64,000 nucleotides of DNA from Escherichia phage FL20. The position numbers and the translations under genes were made by a program. The notes under the pieces were generated by a model. That model made no database searches and was not told the origin of the DNA. It saw only the letters and a program-made list of their open reading frames with translations. Each line of letters begins with the position of its first letter. Position 1 is the first letter of the stretch. The stretch lies in the sequence record PP400781; one strand, 5' to 3'. Shown here piece after piece: positions 27,945-33,194 of this stretch.

Positions 27945-28186
27945 ATACGACCCTTTAACCCAGCACAGATTTTAGTCGGTTCTTTACCGTGCCACATTAA
28001 GTAAAGTCCGTTAATGCGACCTTGTTTTGTGTGTGATTCTTTTCTGATCTTCTTATAGTGTCGTGCTTCCTCAACCGATTGTTTAGAATACCAATCATAA
28101 AGGAAGAGGAACAAAGGCCAGCCATTAGCGACCTTAATACAGTTATTCAAAAATTCCTTATTTCGTTTAATTAATTTTCTTTTCAC
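27941..28186 (-). CDS. hypothetical small basic protein (81 aa)
   Basis: Translationally coupled within the 28434-to-26379 operon. Confidence 0.45.
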   Translation of the reverse strand: MKRKLIKRNKEFLNNCIKVANGWPLFLFLYDWYSKQSVEEARHYKKIRKESHTKQGRINGLYLMWHGKEPTKICAGLKGRI

Positions 28187-28434
28187 GCTGCCCCCATTGG
28201 TTTGATAGTAACAGAATCTAAAAGACCTTTGTTAGCCAGTTCGCGGCAAGTTTTCAGATCCGCAACTTCCCAGCCAGCCGCAATCAGGTTATCAATCAGG
28301 CTGTTAGCAACTTCTTCGCTCATGAAAGAGCACTGTTTGCCGATGGTGTAGCGCACACGCTGTAATTTCAGTTTACGGAAGCCTTTAACGTTCAGGTCTT
28401 TAGCGATTTTCTTTGCGGTTTCGATGTTAGCCAT
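28183..28434 (-). CDS. hypothetical small protein (83 aa)
   Basis: First gene after PeSL; N-terminus MANIE shared with 25846..26058. Confidence 0.5.
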   Translation of the reverse strand: MANIETAKKIAKDLNVKGFRKLKLQRVRYTIGKQCSFMSEEVANSLIDNLIAAGWEVADLKTCRELANKGLLDSVTIKPMGAA

Positions 28435-28503
28435 TGTTTGATTCTCCTAAGTGGTATCTCGTCTTGATGGTTGTATTGTAGGGGAGTTATCCTCCCCTGT
28501 CAA
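28435..28503 (-). promoter_or_regulatory. PeSL-like early promoter cassette
   Basis: TTGACA / palindromic spacer GGGGAGGATAACTCCCC / TACAAT / leader / AGGAGAATC RBS. Confidence 0.7.
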
Positions 28504-28550
28504 CACTTTTTATAAAATTATTTGTTAATTTCTGGTGCGTTGCTAGGATA

Positions 28551-28685
28551 TTAACCTTCTTTAACTCCGAGGTATTTCGCAACCATCCCTACAATCTTCT
28601 GTGCTACTACAATGTCAAATTTCAGATAATCTTCGCCGTGGGTTTCAATGATATATGCTTCACATGCTGCTTTAGTCTCGAACAT
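28551..28685 (-). CDS. truncated paralog of 31801..31968 (44 aa)
   Basis: MFETKAACEAYIIETHGEDYLKFDIVVAQKI; TAA replaces TAC, shortening it by 12 codons relative to the paralog. Confidence 0.45.
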   Translation of the reverse strand: MFETKAACEAYIIETHGEDYLKFDIVVAQKIVGMVAKYLGVKEG

Positions 28686-28747
28686 TTTTATTCTCCTATT
28701 TCGTTTCGTTATGTGTGTATTATAGGGGATCTCCCGATCCCCGTCAA
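28686..28747 (-). promoter_or_regulatory. PeSL-like early promoter cassette
   Basis: TTGACG / palindromic 17-nt spacer with two GATC / TATAAT / leader / RBS. Confidence 0.65.
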
Positions 28748-28761
28748 CAACTTTTTTAAAA

Positions 28762-29043
28762 TTATTCGTGATTAGTTTCGATGTTGTGCATTTTGCACCA
28801 GTTCAGCCAATCACCCAGATCCTGATAGTTAATTCTTTTATCTGCTGCCATCGTTTTTGTCTTGATACCCATATGTGCGTTATGAGTAAGCATTTTTACA
28901 GTGAACTCAATTTTATCACCTTTAGCTTTAACATCAACCAGTTTGGTCCACTGGCTACCAGCTCCGCGAATGTTCATACCAACGATGTTTCCGATGTATG
29001 CTTCTTTGTTTTTCAGGATTTCGGTTGCTTTGATGAATTTCAT
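28762..29043 (-). CDS. hypothetical small protein (93 aa)
   Basis: ORF downstream of PeSL. Confidence 0.5.
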   Translation of the reverse strand: MKFIKATEILKNKEAYIGNIVGMNIRGAGSQWTKLVDVKAKGDKIEFTVKMLTHNAHMGIKTKTMAADKRINYQDLGDWLNWCKMHNIETNHE

Positions 29044-29105
29044 TTTTGATTCTCCAGTTCGTTTCGGTATGTGTGTATTATGCTATGTTCTTACTTTGGT
29101 GTCAA
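29044..29105 (-). promoter_or_regulatory. PeSL-like early promoter cassette
   Basis: TTGACA / 17 nt / CATAAT / conserved leader ACACACATACCGAAACGAA / RBS. Confidence 0.65.
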
Positions 29106-29113
29106 CAACTTTT

Positions 29114-29383
29114 TTAGATATTTTCAGAAATAAATTTTAAAACTTGACGTAAATGTTTCTCATCTTTGATAGTCGCCGGAAGTTCTTCTTTTACTTCCTG
29201 TGCAAGATAGATATTTCCGTTCCAAGTGAAAGATCCGTCTTCGTTTACGCGATAGCTGAACATCCACTCGCAATCATTTTCGATTTCATATACACACAGA
29301 AGGGTGTAATCGTTAAAGCTATTGATTTCAAGGTCGAAGCCGTGACGTTTTGCAAAGTTGGTAGTGGTTTTAGTCAGCGCCAT
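29114..29383 (-). CDS. hypothetical small protein (89 aa)
   Basis: ORF downstream of PeSL. Confidence 0.5.
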   Translation of the reverse strand: MALTKTTTNFAKRHGFDLEINSFNDYTLLCVYEIENDCEWMFSYRVNEDGSFTWNGNIYLAQEVKEELPATIKDEKHLRQVLKFISENI

Positions 29384-29452
29384 TGTTTGATTCTCCTAAG
29401 TGGTATCTCGTTTCGATGGGTGTATTATGCTATAGGCGTGATCTGGTGTCAA
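29384..29452 (-). promoter_or_regulatory. PeSL-like early promoter cassette
   Basis: TTGACA / 17 nt / CATAAT / leader variant shared with cassette at 28435. Confidence 0.65.
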
Positions 29453-29476
29453 CAACTTTTTTAAAATTTTATGCAA

Positions 29477-29502
29477 TAAAAAAGCCGACACTAAGGTCGG
29501 CT
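29477..29502 (-). terminator. rho-independent terminator (minus strand)
   Basis: Minus-strand hairpin AGCCGACCttagTGTCGGCT followed by 7 U. Confidence 0.65.
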
Positions 29503-29509
29503 AATAAAA

Positions 29510-29818
29510 TCATTTAGACAAATAATCATTCAGTGCAATCCGGTTGGCGTATGCTGGTGTTACGTCAATCGCAATCACTTTAACGCGTGCTTTCTTGCGA
29601 CCTGGGTTTTCTCGTAACCAGTGCTCATGACCGTGAACATTTTTATACTGCGATGCTTCTTCGAAGGTACGGATCGGACCTGGATAATCTGCGTAAAGGA
29701 TCTCTAGGTCTTCGGTGATGTAAAAATATACATCATAATTACTGTTCTCTAGTTTAAGCAGAGACTTTCGGAACATTGGGAGATTTTCGCGGGTAAATTC
29801 AAAGATATTATCTTTCAT
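29510..29818 (-). CDS. small protein, HxHW family member A
   Basis: YDVYFYITEDLEILYADY ... HGHEHW ... VKVIAIDV; paralog of B-G. Confidence 0.55.
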   Translation of the reverse strand: MKDNIFEFTRENLPMFRKSLLKLENSNYDVYFYITEDLEILYADYPGPIRTFEEASQYKNVHGHEHWLRENPGRKKARVKVIAIDVTPAYANRIALNDYLSK

Positions 29819-29871
29819 AGTATTATCCTCAATAGTTGGATGAAAAGGGGTGGGGCTTAACGCCCCGTATA

Positions 29872-30159
29872 TTAAAACAGTCCTTCCTGTACACCGTAGT
29901 AGAGTTCATCGCTGATAATTTCATTAATGCGACGGTGTGCATATTCCTGATTTGCGAAGTTATCAGCAAGTTCTACTTTAGTTTCGCCGTCATGAGTCCA
30001 TTTAGTGATAACTTTACCATCTGCAAATTTGAAGTTGAACTCTTTAGCTACCGCATCGCGTACCAGACGTGCGAACTTGTTGTTACGGATTGCATTATCG
30101 GTTTCGTGTGCAGCGTGAGCGAATTTGTTAACTTTCAGAGTGATAGTAATGTATGCCAT
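29872..30159 (-). CDS. hypothetical small protein (95 aa)
   Basis: ORF downstream of PeSL. Confidence 0.5.
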   Translation of the reverse strand: MAYITITLKVNKFAHAAHETDNAIRNNKFARLVRDAVAKEFNFKFADGKVITKWTHDGETKVELADNFANQEYAHRRINEIISDELYYGVQEGLF

Positions 30160-30234
30160 AATTTGATTCTCCTAGTTAGAAAGTGTATCTCGTTTCGATG
30201 GGGATATTATGCTATACACCCGATCTTATGTCAA
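30160..30234 (-). promoter_or_regulatory. PeSL-like early promoter cassette
   Basis: TTGACA / 17 nt / CATAAT / leader / AGGAGAATC RBS. Confidence 0.65.
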
Positions 30235-30240
30235 CACTTT

Positions 30241-30519
30241 TTATAAAATAATTTTTTGATATTTTTCTATGATGTTTGTGTAGGTCACGTCAACCGCTAG
30301 CACCGTTGCTTCGAATCCACCGTTTAACCAATGGCTATGATCATGATCGTGAAAGAAACCTAGACCAGTACGAAGACCTTCTTTATATTCGGCGCGTACA
30401 TTTAGATCATCATCGATAAACAGATAAAACCATGAATTTTTACTAGGATTGATGATACAACCTTTCAGATTAGGGAGAATATCACGACTAAGAATAAACT
30501 TATCACCTACTTTGAGCAT
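30241..30519 (-). CDS. small protein, HxHW family member B
   Basis: WFYLFIDDDLNVRAEY ... HDHDHSHW ... ATVLAVDV; start at MLKVG. Confidence 0.55.
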   Translation of the reverse strand: MLKVGDKFILSRDILPNLKGCIINPSKNSWFYLFIDDDLNVRAEYKEGLRTGLGFFHDHDHSHWLNGGFEATVLAVDVTYTNIIEKYQKIIL

Positions 30520-30533
30520 AATATTTTCCTCAC

Positions 30534-30842
30534 TTATAAAGTTTGACCGTTGTTTTTCGCGTAATGCTGAATGCGTGCTTGATCTGCTTCCGCTGGTGAT
30601 AGATTCCATGCAACCACTACAACTTCTGACGCATCGTCATCCGTTTTTGATACCCAATGATTGTGATTCATACAGTTATTTGCTATCGAGTGAGAAAATG
30701 ATTGCGTCACTGGAGACGTATAATCATAGTAACGGATTTTCAGATTTTCATCAACGTACAAGTAGATCGTATACGGCTTATATTCAGTAACCAGTAACAG
30801 ACAGTTACGCAATTCTGGGAAAATCTTTTTAGTTAATTTCAT
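30534..30842 (-). CDS. small protein, HxHW family member C
   Basis: YTIYLYVDENLKIRYYDY ... NHNHW ... VVVVAWNL; start at MKLTKK. Confidence 0.5.
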   Translation of the reverse strand: MKLTKKIFPELRNCLLLVTEYKPYTIYLYVDENLKIRYYDYTSPVTQSFSHSIANNCMNHNHWVSKTDDDASEVVVVAWNLSPAEADQARIQHYAKNNGQTL

Positions 30843-30843
30843 T

Positions 30844-31062
30844 TTATAATCCTCGGTCGCGGCTATAGTACACGGTACGCCATACAATTTCATGTTTCGT
30901 GTCGCTCCAGCACACGATCTCATTTACTCTTAAATCTTTGTTATCAACAAAAGATGAACATTGTGACGCTTCTTTCATCATTTTATCTGCTGTTTTCTCA
31001 TCAAATACAGCACAGATTTCTTTATACACTCGATAATCTTTGAATTGACTCTGAATACCCAT
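30844..31062 (-). CDS. hypothetical small protein, tandem paralog 1
   Basis: FKDYRVYKEICAVFDEKTADKMMKEASQCSSF resembles the next ORF. Confidence 0.4.
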   Translation of the reverse strand: MGIQSQFKDYRVYKEICAVFDEKTADKMMKEASQCSSFVDNKDLRVNEIVCWSDTKHEIVWRTVYYSRDRGL

Positions 31063-31279
31063 AATTAACACCATTCCAACCAATTGTTTTTGAGAAAACG
31101 TTTATCCACTGTTGAGTGTAGCATGTTTCTTTCCATGATACAATACGAGTAGAATAATGGTTTTTGTTTCCAGAAAAGGACGGGCATTTTGATGCATCTT
31201 CCATCATCTTTTCGGCGAACTCTGGTGCGTATACTCGCAGGATCTGTTGATATGCTTTGTATTCTTTAAATTTGCTCAT
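31022..31279 (-). CDS. hypothetical small protein, tandem paralog 2
   Basis: FKEYKAYQQILRVYAPEFAEKMMEDASKCPSF resembles the previous ORF; 3' end overlaps it. Confidence 0.4.
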   Translation of the reverse strand: MSKFKEYKAYQQILRVYAPEFAEKMMEDASKCPSFSGNKNHYSTRIVSWKETCYTQQWINVFSKTIGWNGVNYGYSESIQRLSSV

Positions 31280-31544
31280 AATCATTCACTACCTTATCAG
31301 CTTCTTTTGTTGTTTTTACATCAACTGCGATAACTCGTAAAGGTTCGTCATGGTTCCACCAGTGGTCATGAATATCAGCTTGTGATTTATCACAAAAGGA
31401 ATCACGAATATCATTTTTACATTTATAGCTAATGTGACCGTCATAGTCAACATAAAGGTAATTATCGAAAATCGGCGTTTTTAAGATCATACCGAAAAAT
31501 CTTTCTTTGTGTGTCTTATCCAGTGTTGCAGTAATTCGCATCAT
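31266..31544 (-). CDS. small protein, HxHW family member D
   Basis: NYLYVDYDGHISYKC ... HDHWWNH ... LRVIAVDV. Confidence 0.55.
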   Translation of the reverse strand: MMRITATLDKTHKERFFGMILKTPIFDNYLYVDYDGHISYKCKNDIRDSFCDKSQADIHDHWWNHDEPLRVIAVDVKTTKEADKVVNDYEQI

Positions 31545-31556
31545 AATATATTCCTC

Positions 31557-31736
31557 TTAGAAAGGGATGGTCATTTCTTGAGCTTGTACATTCTCGTTAG
31601 GATTAAACTTCATCCAGCCGATATTGTCTACCAGCATATGCACATTTTTATCATATCCTACGTGGGTAGTCAATACTGTATGTGCTTTACCTTCAATGAT
31701 GAGTTCCATGTACTTCTGAACTTCGATAGCTTTCAT
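31557..31736 (-). CDS. hypothetical small protein (59 aa)
   Basis: ORF below track cutoff, immediately downstream of PeSL. Confidence 0.4.
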   Translation of the reverse strand: MKAIEVQKYMELIIEGKAHTVLTTHVGYDKNVHMLVDNIGWMKFNPNENVQAQEMTIPF

Positions 31737-31797
31737 TTTGATTCTCCGTTTGTTGTCTTGATGGGAGTATCTTACTACTCCCTTTAATCATTGTCAA
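31737..31797 (-). promoter_or_regulatory. PeSL-like early promoter cassette
   Basis: TTGACA / 17 nt / TAAGAT with hairpin GGGAGTAgtaagaTACTCCC overlapping -10. Confidence 0.6.
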
Positions 31798-31800
31798 CTA

Positions 31801-31968
31801 TTATTTGTTAATTTCCGGTGCGTTGCTCGGATAGTAACCTTCTTTAACACCTAGATATTTTGCAACCATTCCGGTGATCTTCTGTGCTACTACGATATCG
31901 AATTTCAGGTAGTCTTCACCGTGGTTTGCTACAATGTATGCTTCGCATTCTGCTTTAGTCTCGAACAT
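31801..31968 (-). CDS. hypothetical small protein (56 aa), full-length paralog of 28551..28685
   Basis: MFETKAECEAYIVANHGEDYLKFDIVVAQKITGMVAKYLGVKEGYYPSNAPEINK. Confidence 0.5.
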   Translation of the reverse strand: MFETKAECEAYIVANHGEDYLKFDIVVAQKITGMVAKYLGVKEGYYPSNAPEINK

Positions 31969-32031
31969 TTTTGATTCTCCTATATCTCGTTGGTATGTGT
32001 GCATTATAGGGGATCACCGATCCCCTGTCAA
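31969..32031 (-). promoter_or_regulatory. PeSL-like early promoter cassette
   Basis: TTGACA / GGGGATCGGTGATCCCC / TATAAT / leader / RBS. Confidence 0.7.
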
Positions 32032-32038
32032 CAACTTT

Positions 32039-32341
32039 TTATTCTTCGTCTTTATCTTTATATGCGTATTTCATAAATTTGTCTGCTACTTCGTCCGCGT
32101 TTTCAGGTTCTACATCTGACGCTAGGACAACAGCTAGTTCGGTTTTGTCGTTTCCATCATACCAATGATTATGAGTGTCTTTTTCTTCGATATAAAACGA
32201 ATCATTTGGAGTTGGGCGACAATATACGTCTAAATTCCCATCGATATAAAAGATCCAATCCGAATACAAAATGATTGTTTTAGCCAGATTTTTATTGTCT
32301 CTTACAAAAGGTTCCGCGACAAATAGCTTAGTTTGTTCCAT
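32039..32341 (-). CDS. small protein, HxHW family member E
   Basis: WIFYIDGNLDVYCR ... HNHWYDG ... ELAVVLASDV; start at MEQTK. Confidence 0.55.
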   Translation of the reverse strand: MEQTKLFVAEPFVRDNKNLAKTIILYSDWIFYIDGNLDVYCRPTPNDSFYIEEKDTHNHWYDGNDKTELAVVLASDVEPENADEVADKFMKYAYKDKDEE

Positions 32342-32357
32342 AGTAATTTCCTCAAAA

Positions 32358-32549
32358 TTATACAGCTTCGTAAACTTCCCAATGTCCAACACCAGCACGC
32401 TTAACGAAAAGGTTTTCTTTGATGTTATTCATAAACGTCTGGATGGATTTAATGCGGTTGGAAGGTTTCCAGTCTTCGTTGGCATTGCGGCGATACATCA
32501 TAACATTACCAGTTCGCTTATATTCAGCAACCATTTTAAGACCACACAT
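32358..32549 (-). CDS. hypothetical small protein (63 aa)
   Basis: ORF downstream of a variant cassette. Confidence 0.4.
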   Translation of the reverse strand: MCGLKMVAEYKRTGNVMMYRRNANEDWKPSNRIKSIQTFMNNIKENLFVKRAGVGHWEVYEAV

Positions 32550-32627
32550 AATATTATCCTCAATTTGTGGGAGAGTATTACCCTCCCGATTATTGTTATA
32601 CTACATTACGCAAAATGGCGTGTCAAT
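32550..32627 (-). promoter_or_regulatory. variant early promoter with leader stem-loop
   Basis: TTGACA / spacer / TATAAC, then hairpin GGGAGggtaatactCTCCC in leader, RBS GAGGATAA. Confidence 0.5.
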
Positions 32628-32926
32628 GCTTCTTTTGCTGTTCCGCTAAGATTCTCGATCTCTCCTGGCATAACATCAACCGCAAGAACTTCTACAACAT
32701 CCTCTGATCCTAACCAGTGAGTATGACCTTTGTAGAACTTGATAACCAGACTACCTTCCTCATCCCATTTAACGCTATCGCTAGCCCACCACACATCACC
32801 GTCGATAAAGTTGATGTAAAGCACACTACGCCACATTGAATCGGTTACTTTCAATATTGCGCCTTTCATCTCTTCCACGGTGTGGTCTTCCATTTTGAAG
32901 ACCTCGCCTACTTGAACTTTTGCCAT
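32606..32926 (-). CDS. small protein, HxHW family member F
   Basis: VLYINFIDGDVWWASD ... HTHWLGSED ... VEVLAVDV; start at MAKVQ. Confidence 0.55.
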   Translation of the reverse strand: MAKVQVGEVFKMEDHTVEEMKGAILKVTDSMWRSVLYINFIDGDVWWASDSVKWDEEGSLVIKFYKGHTHWLGSEDVVEVLAVDVMPGEIENLSGTAKEALTRHFA

Positions 32927-32927
32927 G

Positions 32928-33194
32928 TTACATGCTCCGAATATGTTTAGCTGCATCTTCCAGTTCGTCGATAGTGACACTGTGTGCCAGTAAGTGTACT
33001 GGTTGTGGTTCTTCACCTTCCATAGTATTGATCAGATGACCGTTTCCTGGGTGGAATGTATCGTTGCCGTTCCAAATAGCATACACATCATCTTCTGTTA
33101 CGTAGATAATAAGTCCAATCGGTGATTCTGGTAATTGAAAAATTTTACCCACTGCATCTTTGCGATTGTCTACGATATCTTTTACTGTCTTCAT
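32928..33194 (-). CDS. small protein, divergent HxHW-family-like member G
   Basis: GLIIYVTEDDVYAIW ... HPGNGH ... HLLAHSVTID; weaker motif match. Confidence 0.4.
   Translation of the reverse strand: MKTVKDIVDNRKDAVGKIFQLPESPIGLIIYVTEDDVYAIWNGNDTFHPGNGHLINTMEGEEPQPVHLLAHSVTIDELEDAAKHIRSM

Follow-up and report, generated by a model that had tools for sequence, protein, structure and literature searches.

PeSL (promoter-early stem-loop) elements are intergenic motifs in which the upstream stop codon is followed by an AT-rich stretch and then by sigma-70 promoter boxes, a stem-loop, a Shine-Dalgarno sequence and a start codon (PMC2839356). Together with ORFans they make up cassettes in T4-type phages, for which insertion, deletion and mini-circles have been described (Arbiol, Comeau et al., 2010, PMC2839356; Comeau et al., 2014, PMC4122927). 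In RB49, a mini-circle with ORFans 191-194 was detected (PMC2839356), and PeSL206/205 showed a promoter activity of about 13,000 Miller units (Arbiol et al., 2010, PMC2839356). So far as a text search of this published PeSL work showed, ORF191 and ORF205 are not mentioned there as paralogs; the term "paralog" gave no match and the sole match to "duplicat" was "duplicate cultures". A literature search by RB49 locus tags, protein accessions and PHROG identifier likewise found no paper.

The DNA analyzed here, a stretch of 64 kb (the window), is that of a Krischvirus, one of the RB49-like E. coli phages of the T4 type, and its positions 28000-32500 find matches in 58 Krischvirus records with a top identity of 97.9%. 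It carries an intact ORF205-type gene and, 3.2 kb away, a truncated paralog of the ORF191 type, of which the original prediction had said that it arose by a recent duplication and was starting to decay or being trimmed. We consider it likely that the duplication is instead old, preceding the sampled genus, and that a recent stop codon in the ORF191 copy has produced a nascent pseudogene.

Two paralogous genes in PeSL-bounded cassettes

A tblastn search of the 64-kb window with the product of the longer gene returned exactly two copies, the gene itself (31968..31804, 100%) and 28685..28521, which translates as MFETKAACEAYIIETHGEDYLKFDIVVAQKIVGMVAKYLGVKEG*YPSNAPEINK (E 3e-30). At the DNA level, 28517..28756 and 31800..32040 align over 242 nt with 84.7% identity (E 2e-71 for the 64-kb window), a likeness far above chance, and the predicted paralogy of the two genes is borne out by both searches. 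The shared DNA comprises the upstream promoter and stem-loop and the entire 55-codon frame, and stops 1-2 nt beyond the original stop codon. The VGMVAK... and YLGVK peptides are common to both copies, and the EGYYPSNAPEINK tail contains copy-specific residues. Fixed differences between the ORF191 and ORF205 types are A7/E7, IIET/IVAN and V32/T32, and these could reflect sub-functionalisation.

The long copy (31801..31968, minus strand) counts 168 nt with its stop codon and encodes 55 aa, one fewer than the 56 aa first stated, and its protein is 98% identical to that of its RB49 ortholog, ORF205 (RB49p205, NP_891776). A longer ATG-initiated frame, 31801..32004, was dismissed as a mechanical artefact that reads through the promoter. 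The short copy (28551..28685, minus strand) has 44 codons and a premature ochre stop and is the ortholog of RB49 ORF191 (RB49p191, NP_891762). The counterparts of the two genes in JSE are EpJSE_00198 and EpJSE_00210, and those in phi1 are again ORF191 and ORF205. For annotation purposes, the short ORF is better labelled a truncated ORF191 ortholog than a new 44-aa gene.

Both products belong to phrog_8009, a family annotated as of unknown function. Its 55-position profile is matched by residues 1-55 of the long copy over positions 1-55 (E 1.4e-38) and by the short copy over positions 1-44 of 55 only (E 7.2e-29); it is the sole meaningful PHROG match, with phrog_485 weak at E 0.006-0.19. No Pfam match was obtained for either copy, and a protein search yielded seven clusters, none of them named, of which P0004 and P0007 are chimeric or misassembled products. 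Nor did structure searches give a functional lead: Foldseek found nothing in the PDB (best E 2.0), and its matches in BFVD were limited to the GEC-3S ortholog and a 61-aa protein of Henu8 that is itself uncharacterised. Given the strong sigma-70 early promoter, the small size and the spread among unrelated enterobacterial phages, we suggest with low confidence that the protein may be a host-directed early accessory protein.

That both copies lie behind PeSL cassettes was also predicted correctly, as each was found to have an AT-rich stretch, two promoter boxes (-35 and -10) with a stem-loop between them, a Shine-Dalgarno sequence and an ATG. The PeSL preceding the short copy (28686..28760, minus strand) has an AT-rich stretch and a TTGACG-17-TATAAT promoter at 28747..28719 (-35 28747..28742, -10 28724..28719; 11/12 hexamer matches). 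The one preceding the long copy, which corresponds to PeSL206/205 (31969..32038, minus strand), has TTGACA-17-TATAAT at 32031..32003 (-35 32031..32026, -10 32008..32003) and matches all 12 hexamer positions. In both of them a GGGGATC/GATCCCC stem of 7-8 bp sits between the boxes, with predicted energies of -14.3 (short copy) and -13.5 kcal/mol (long copy) for 41-nt segments (z about -2.5), and AGGAG precedes the ATG by 6-7 nt. Downstream of the short copy, a further PeSL (28435..28517, minus strand) bounds the ORF191 cassette and is the predicted promoter of the ORF190 ortholog (28183..28434); it has TTGACA-17-TACAAT (28503..28475) with a 7-bp core stem in the spacer, and its 43-nt segment has a folding energy of -19.4 kcal/mol. 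The long copy is adjoined by the promoter of the ORF204 ortholog (31737..31800, minus strand; TTGACA-17-TAAGAT at 31797..31769). Here, reading of the sequence reveals an inverted repeat, GGGAGTA/TACTCCC, over the -10 box, of which folding captured only 5 pairs since the folded segment ended at 31765. The two copies therefore resemble the published PeSL and ORFan cassettes in being PeSL-bounded, and the duplicated unit runs from the start of the PeSL to the stop of the ORF.

Age of the duplication

A duplication of recent date, followed by incipient decay of one copy, would fit with copies that are 85% identical, promoters included, and with the interruption of one of them. We nevertheless regard this reading as highly improbable, given that each copy occupies a fixed, syntenic site throughout the genus. 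The gene orders ORF190|191|193 and ORF204|205|206 are kept in RB49, Phi1, JSE and nine further genomes; two copies are present in 51 of the 58 public Krischvirus records, and every one of the 58 has kept at least one. The degree of divergence points in the same direction. The paralogs in the window differ at 26/168 nt (pS about 0.57, pN 0.047), and across genomes paralogs are 16-28 nt apart (mean 23.8; pS 0.53-0.61, pN about 0.05), whereas orthologs from different genomes differ by a mean of only 3.3 nt (ORF191) or 4.5 nt (ORF205), with almost no synonymous divergence. Moreover, paralog-specific substitutions are common to the orthologs in all genomes aligned.

The shared synteny, and a divergence between paralogs that far exceeds that between orthologs, thus place the duplication before the sampled Krischvirus members, and purifying selection has maintained both copies from then on. 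The claim of a recent duplication does not hold; the paralog pair is an old, conserved feature of Krischvirus.

The premature stop and the lost tail

Codon alignment confirms that the short copy has TAA (28551-28553) where the long copy has TAC (31834-31836), and that homology does not end there: it reaches the original stop at 28518-28520, as had been predicted. Over the 10 codons after the premature stop and the original stop itself, only two differences exist between the copies, CCT/CCG and CCA/CCG, both synonymous. The untranslated remnant (28518..28550, minus strand), consisting of codons 46-55 (YPSNAPEINK) and the ancestral TAA, has the same sequence as the ORF191 tail of Phi1 and FL04, whose complete ORF191 genes are one base, the stop mutation, apart from the window copy over 168 nt. 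Maintenance of this tail by gene conversion from the long copy was considered and rejected as unnecessary, because the tail equals that of the orthologs and has the ORF191-type synonymous states (CCT, CCA).

The mutation is a single C>A transversion on the coding strand (plus-strand G>T at 28551) that turns Tyr45 (TAC) into TAA. All relatives have G at this plus-strand position, and TAC is present in 13/13 aligned ORF191-type genes. The repaired 55-aa protein is encoded at full length and 100% identity in 44 public records, and the reading frame is likewise intact in the other nine records with an ORF191-type gene, so that the frame of the short copy is disrupted relative to all 53. The TAA allele occurs in none of these 53 records, a 61-nt probe centred on the stop matched no record at 100%, and an exact-sequence look-up of the 44-aa product in a gene-position collection gave no match. 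On the strength of its absence from 53/53 records, we judge the nonsense mutation to be recent and private to this genome, and homology would extend beyond the stop because there has been no time for other changes.

As a difference of one base that no other record shares, the stop could also be an artefact of sequencing, assembly or laboratory passage, the natural phage having an intact 55-codon gene. An automatic scan found 16 private positions in 7517, to which two sites recognized by eye, 28689 and 31962, were added for codon analysis; the scan had missed both because genomes without ORF191 were aligned to the paralog instead. The first is a private coding-strand C>A in the spacer between Shine-Dalgarno and ATG of the short copy, and the second a private plus-strand C that changes CAG to GAG, giving Q3E in the long copy and thereby the residue that ORF191-type genes have at this site. 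In these respects, and in the stop at codon 45, the ORF191 and ORF205 orthologs of the window are unlike those of RB49, phi1 and JSE. Plus-strand G>T is frequent among the private differences (28551, 28689, 28834, 28963 and 32180) and could reflect oxidative library damage. However, 11 of the 15 private changes within genes fall in third codon positions and 8/15 are synonymous, as is characteristic of genuine substitutions that have come through selection; neighbouring genes show no frameshifts, and the gene has been shown to be dispensable in nature. The stop seems to be a genuine substitution and not a random error, and we hold an artefact to be unlikely.

The mutation deletes 11 residues, among them the invariant YYPSNA block. 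The longer motif KEGYYPSNA is unchanged in homologs of 72-80% identity, YYPSNA is invariant also in distantly related siphoviruses, and across 31 copies codons 46-55 show synonymous variation only. The KEGYYPSNA block is found in the product of the long copy and is missing from that of the short copy, which ends at G44, with the block still encoded after the stop. In the best AlphaFold model, which is of moderate confidence (mean pLDDT 81.9), residues 44-47 form a beta-strand paired with residues 28-31; the four other models had a pLDDT of 48-59. With the YYPSNA block gone, which even homologs of 72-80% identity keep unchanged, the protein of 44 aa is probably defective and would most likely lack stability or activity.

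These features also bear on whether the 44-aa form might be a functional, selected variant with, for instance, a changed or dominant-negative activity. The promoter, the Shine-Dalgarno sequence and the first 44 codons, including three predicted helices and the first strand, are all intact, which speaks in favour of such a variant. Yet no homolog shows a change in the block that was removed, the allele has been seen only once, and neither a search of 5.8 billion proteins nor the exact-match look-up gave a 44-aa homolog, which makes this reading very improbable. For the same reason, "being trimmed" is not supported as a description of the short copy, since no part of the family is better conserved than the residues that were removed.

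It could further be speculated that translation continues past the stop, by read-through or by suppression through, for instance, a tyrosine-inserting ochre suppressor tRNA of host or phage, and that the tail is conserved because the 55-aa protein is still made. A suppressor of this kind would exactly reverse TAC to TAA, and the frame downstream of the stop is intact. Against this, the 64-kb window has no tRNA gene and hence no phage-borne suppressor there, the stop lies in a UAA-U context, a termination signal that ranks with the most efficient ones in E. coli, and the intact tail, being identical to that of Phi1 and FL04, is fully explained by a young mutation. We consider the likelihood of read-through to be negligible.

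Dispensability of either copy and the proposed history

Natural isolates have lost one or the other copy. The ORF191 cassette is absent from five public records (Brandy, JK32, UPWr_E1 and MIZ4/5), and in Brandy, JK32 and UPWr_E1 a single 84-nt spacer parts ORF190 from ORF193. Cognac and FL04 are without ORF193-ORF205, and ORF206 is joined to the ORF191-type gene by a crossover inside the PeSL. Such a crossover is a prediction of the published PeSL model, and judging from the position of the junction we attribute the loss of ORF193-205 to PeSL recombination. From these isolates it follows that either copy is individually dispensable. The intact and strongly promoted ORF205 probably covers the function of ORF191, redundancy being assumed here.

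Our preferred history, an old duplication followed by a recent stop, would then run as follows. The PeSL and ORF cassette would have been duplicated once within the hyperplastic region, prior to the divergence of the sampled Krischvirus members, and the cassette boundaries suggest that this likely took place by PeSL-to-PeSL recombination and reinsertion of a mini-circle, processes that have been described for this very region. Purifying selection then kept both copies, with occasional short gene-conversion patches between them, as mosaic sites show. Later, and in the line leading to the present genome alone, one C>A transversion changed Tyr45 of the ORF191 copy to ochre TAA, and the loss may have been borne because ORF191, absent as it is from natural isolates, is individually dispensable and its paralog probably stands in for it. 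The event itself is unremarkable, in that one strain has lost a gene that is dispensable and has a backup.

A somewhat wider alternative holds that the 44-aa fragment is either a selected variant or one state in an ongoing exchange between PeSL-flanked paralogs. In such an exchange, short conversion patches would copy alleles between the two genes, and disabling alleles could be mended by the partner copy or passed on to it. The ORF191-type Glu3 in the long copy of the window and the conversion mosaics between copies in PTE-Eco09, LF73P4 and Brandy are in line with exchange, and we assign this alternative a very small probability.

With an old duplication and a recent stop as the likely course of events, the locus resembles other nascent pseudogenes, that is, nonsense alleles in redundant paralogs, in having one disabling substitution in an otherwise unchanged gene, an intact paralog and a dispensable locus. 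It is too young for a signature of relaxed selection: apart from the stop there is no further change within the short-copy coding sequence, and the divergence is too small for such a test.

By itself the case carries little weight. We contend that it shows, cleanly and datably, how gene loss begins in a hyperplastic region of a phage, since a single base has changed without secondary decay, the paralog nearby is intact and sister genomes have natural deletions of either cassette, and that it adds comparative support to the published model of PeSL recombination.

The paralog pair and its setting

Searching the window with the product of the long ORF (31801..31968, minus strand) by tblastn returned exactly two copies, 31968..31804 and 28685..28521, the latter (short ORF 28551..28685, minus strand) reading ...GVKEG*YPSNAPEINK. 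A DNA alignment of 28517..28756 with 31800..32040 is 242 nt long and 84.7% identical (E 2e-71), establishing the paralogy put forward in the original prediction. As had been noticed, TAA in the short copy (28551-28553) lies opposite TAC in the long copy (31834-31836), and homology does not end there: ten more codons follow, up to the original termination codon at 28518-28520, and just two differences, both synonymous, occur among them. Both copies lie behind a sigma-70 promoter of near-consensus sequence whose spacer holds a G/C stem-loop of 7-8 bp, with AGGAG and then ATG following, a layout that fits the promoter-early stem-loop (PeSL) as defined by Arbiol et al. (2010; PMC2839356) and bears out the proposed PeSL cassettes. 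The observation is confirmed on all points of importance; the long ORF, counted as 56 aa, encodes 55 aa.

The surrounding 4.5 kb has matches in 58 phage records, all of them Krischvirus (RB49-like T4-type coliphages), the closest being 97.9% identical, which indicates that the window represents a distinct isolate. The genes of this ORFan-rich hyperplastic region lie on the minus strand, with a DNA methyltransferase on one side and HNH endonuclease/DNA ligase genes on the other. Seven paralogous ORFan genes of ~90-105 aa are located on the minus strand at 29510-33194 (29510-29818, 30241-30519, 30534-30854, 31266-31544, 32039-32347, 32606-32926 and 32928-33194), sharing the motifs 'YLYID.DL ... 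H.HW ... VLAVDV.P' at 23-29% pairwise identity and without a Pfam match. They occupy much of the 3.2 kb separating the two copies and extend past the long copy; the hyperplastic region is therefore made largely of one expanded ORFan family. Two overlapping minus-strand ORFs, 31022-31285 and 30844-31083 (ORF202/201 positions), are apparent tandem paralogs judging from their translations, both with F(K)(E/D)Y..Y..I..V......KMM.(E/D)AS.C.SF; in several relatives their annotation differs or one gene is missing.

Age of the duplication and exchange between copies

The window's two genes, members of the family phrog_8009, are orthologs of RB49 ORF191 (short) and ORF205 (long), each of which has a 168-nt CDS annotation in genomes such as RB49, Phi1, JSE and Delraymugoa. 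Two copies are present in 51 of the 58 records, and a marker map of twelve fetched genomes shows the gene orders ORF190|191-type|ORF193 and ORF204|205-type|ORF206 to be kept. Orthologs of each type have paralog-specific residues in common (A7/E7, IIET/IVAN, V32/T32). The duplication had been called recent, which is not borne out by these syntenic copies nor by paralogs that differ at 16-28 nt (mean 23.8) vs means of 3.3 (ORF191) and 4.5 (ORF205) among orthologs; it is old. With pS at 0.53-0.57 and pN near 0.05, the paralogs have diverged over a long time, both of them under purifying selection. Homology runs from the PeSL to the ORF's stop codon, which makes the PeSL+ORF cassette the duplicated unit; mini-circle excision and reinsertion, consistent with these boundaries, may have been the route.

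Outside the T4-type, unrelated Escherichia and Salmonella phages of 45-56 kb carry homologs of 48-90% identity as single copies. Single-copy homologs of 51 aa, ending ...KEGYYPSNAY, are those of MT768060 (vB_EcoS_swi2), MZ489634 (Salmonella phage D10), MH791412 (SeSz-2), KX987158 (Sasha) and IMG/VR loci L003 and L004. The two-copy state is thus a Krischvirus feature, and the small gene has moved between phage lineages infecting enterobacteria.

Several copies are mosaic. ORF191 of PTE-Eco09 (fetched locus L014, 1522-1760) has a 205-type leader and is 205-type at nt 7, 20 and 24. In ORF205, 191-type states are found at nt 69, 72 and 75 in LF73P4, PTE-Eco09 and Brandy, and additionally at nt 51, 57 and 60 in the latter two. 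These are short gene-conversion mosaics of the two types. Brandy retains its ORF205 mosaic although its ORF191 copy is now lost. In the window's long copy, a private CAG>GAG change at 31962 (Q3E) equals the ORF191 state and may have arisen by point mutation or by conversion over a very short tract.

A private stop and what it removes

Among 14 aligned ORF191-type genes, only the window has A at nt 135, and its short copy differs from those of Phi1 and FL04 by one base over 168 nt, the base creating the stop. None of the 58 records gave a 100% match to a 61-nt probe with the stop at its centre, and the 44-aa product has no entry in the gene-position collection. The repaired 55-aa sequence has a 100% identical full-length product in 44 records (tblastn), and the remaining nine records with an ORF191-type copy are intact as well, including RB49 with I13V, five with H16Y and TAC-TAT at codons 45-46, and the conversion mosaic of PTE-Eco09. 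The nonsense mutation is thus private and very recent. Less probably, it is a single-base error in the sequence. Window-private substitutions amount to 16 of 7517 positions (about 0.2%), and 11 of the 15 within genes fall at third codon positions, eight being synonymous, which argues for real substitutions rather than random errors. Plus-strand G>T is over-represented among the private differences (28551, 28689, 28834, 28963, 32180); that at 28689, coding-strand C>A, lies between the Shine-Dalgarno and ATG of the short copy.

All variation in codons 46-55 among 31 Krischvirus copies is synonymous (four sites, one with three states), and the longest stretch without variation, even when homologs of 72-80% identity are included, is K42-A50 (KEGYYPSNA). 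The best AlphaFold model (mean pLDDT 81.9; the remaining four were poor) places residues 44-47 in a beta-strand adjoining strand 28-31, with disorder only at 50-55. The 44-aa product would accordingly be expected to be destabilised or inactive. Pfam, PHROG, protein and Foldseek searches and the literature assigned no function to the ORF191/ORF205 protein.

Natural deletions of either cassette

One cassette or the other is missing from some natural genomes, and none of the 58 records lacks both. A single 84-nt spacer separates ORF190 and ORF193 in Brandy, JK32 and UPWr_E1, MIZ4/5 have a larger deletion, and one IMG/VR contig is also without the ORF191 copy. In Cognac and FL04 the entire 3.2 kb from ORF193 to ORF205 is gone and ORF206 is joined to the ORF191-type gene. 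Compared with window 28434-32039, their junctions pass from 205-type into 191-type sequence at different points, within the stem-loop of the PeSL in FL04 (L020, 3435-3767) and between leader and ATG in Cognac (L018, 4629-4956), positions reported as crossover sites of RB49 mini-circles (PMC2839356). The two deletions are independent and differ in crossover point; the paralog/PeSL pair thus acts as a natural deletion substrate. The nonsense-bearing ORF191 gene is dispensable, and its loss is tolerated.

Both the gene pair and the PeSL system have been annotated or published before, and novelty is limited to the allele. The feature is real and was correctly observed: an old, conserved PeSL-flanked paralog pair in which one member, a dispensable gene, bears a nonsense mutation that is private and very recent.
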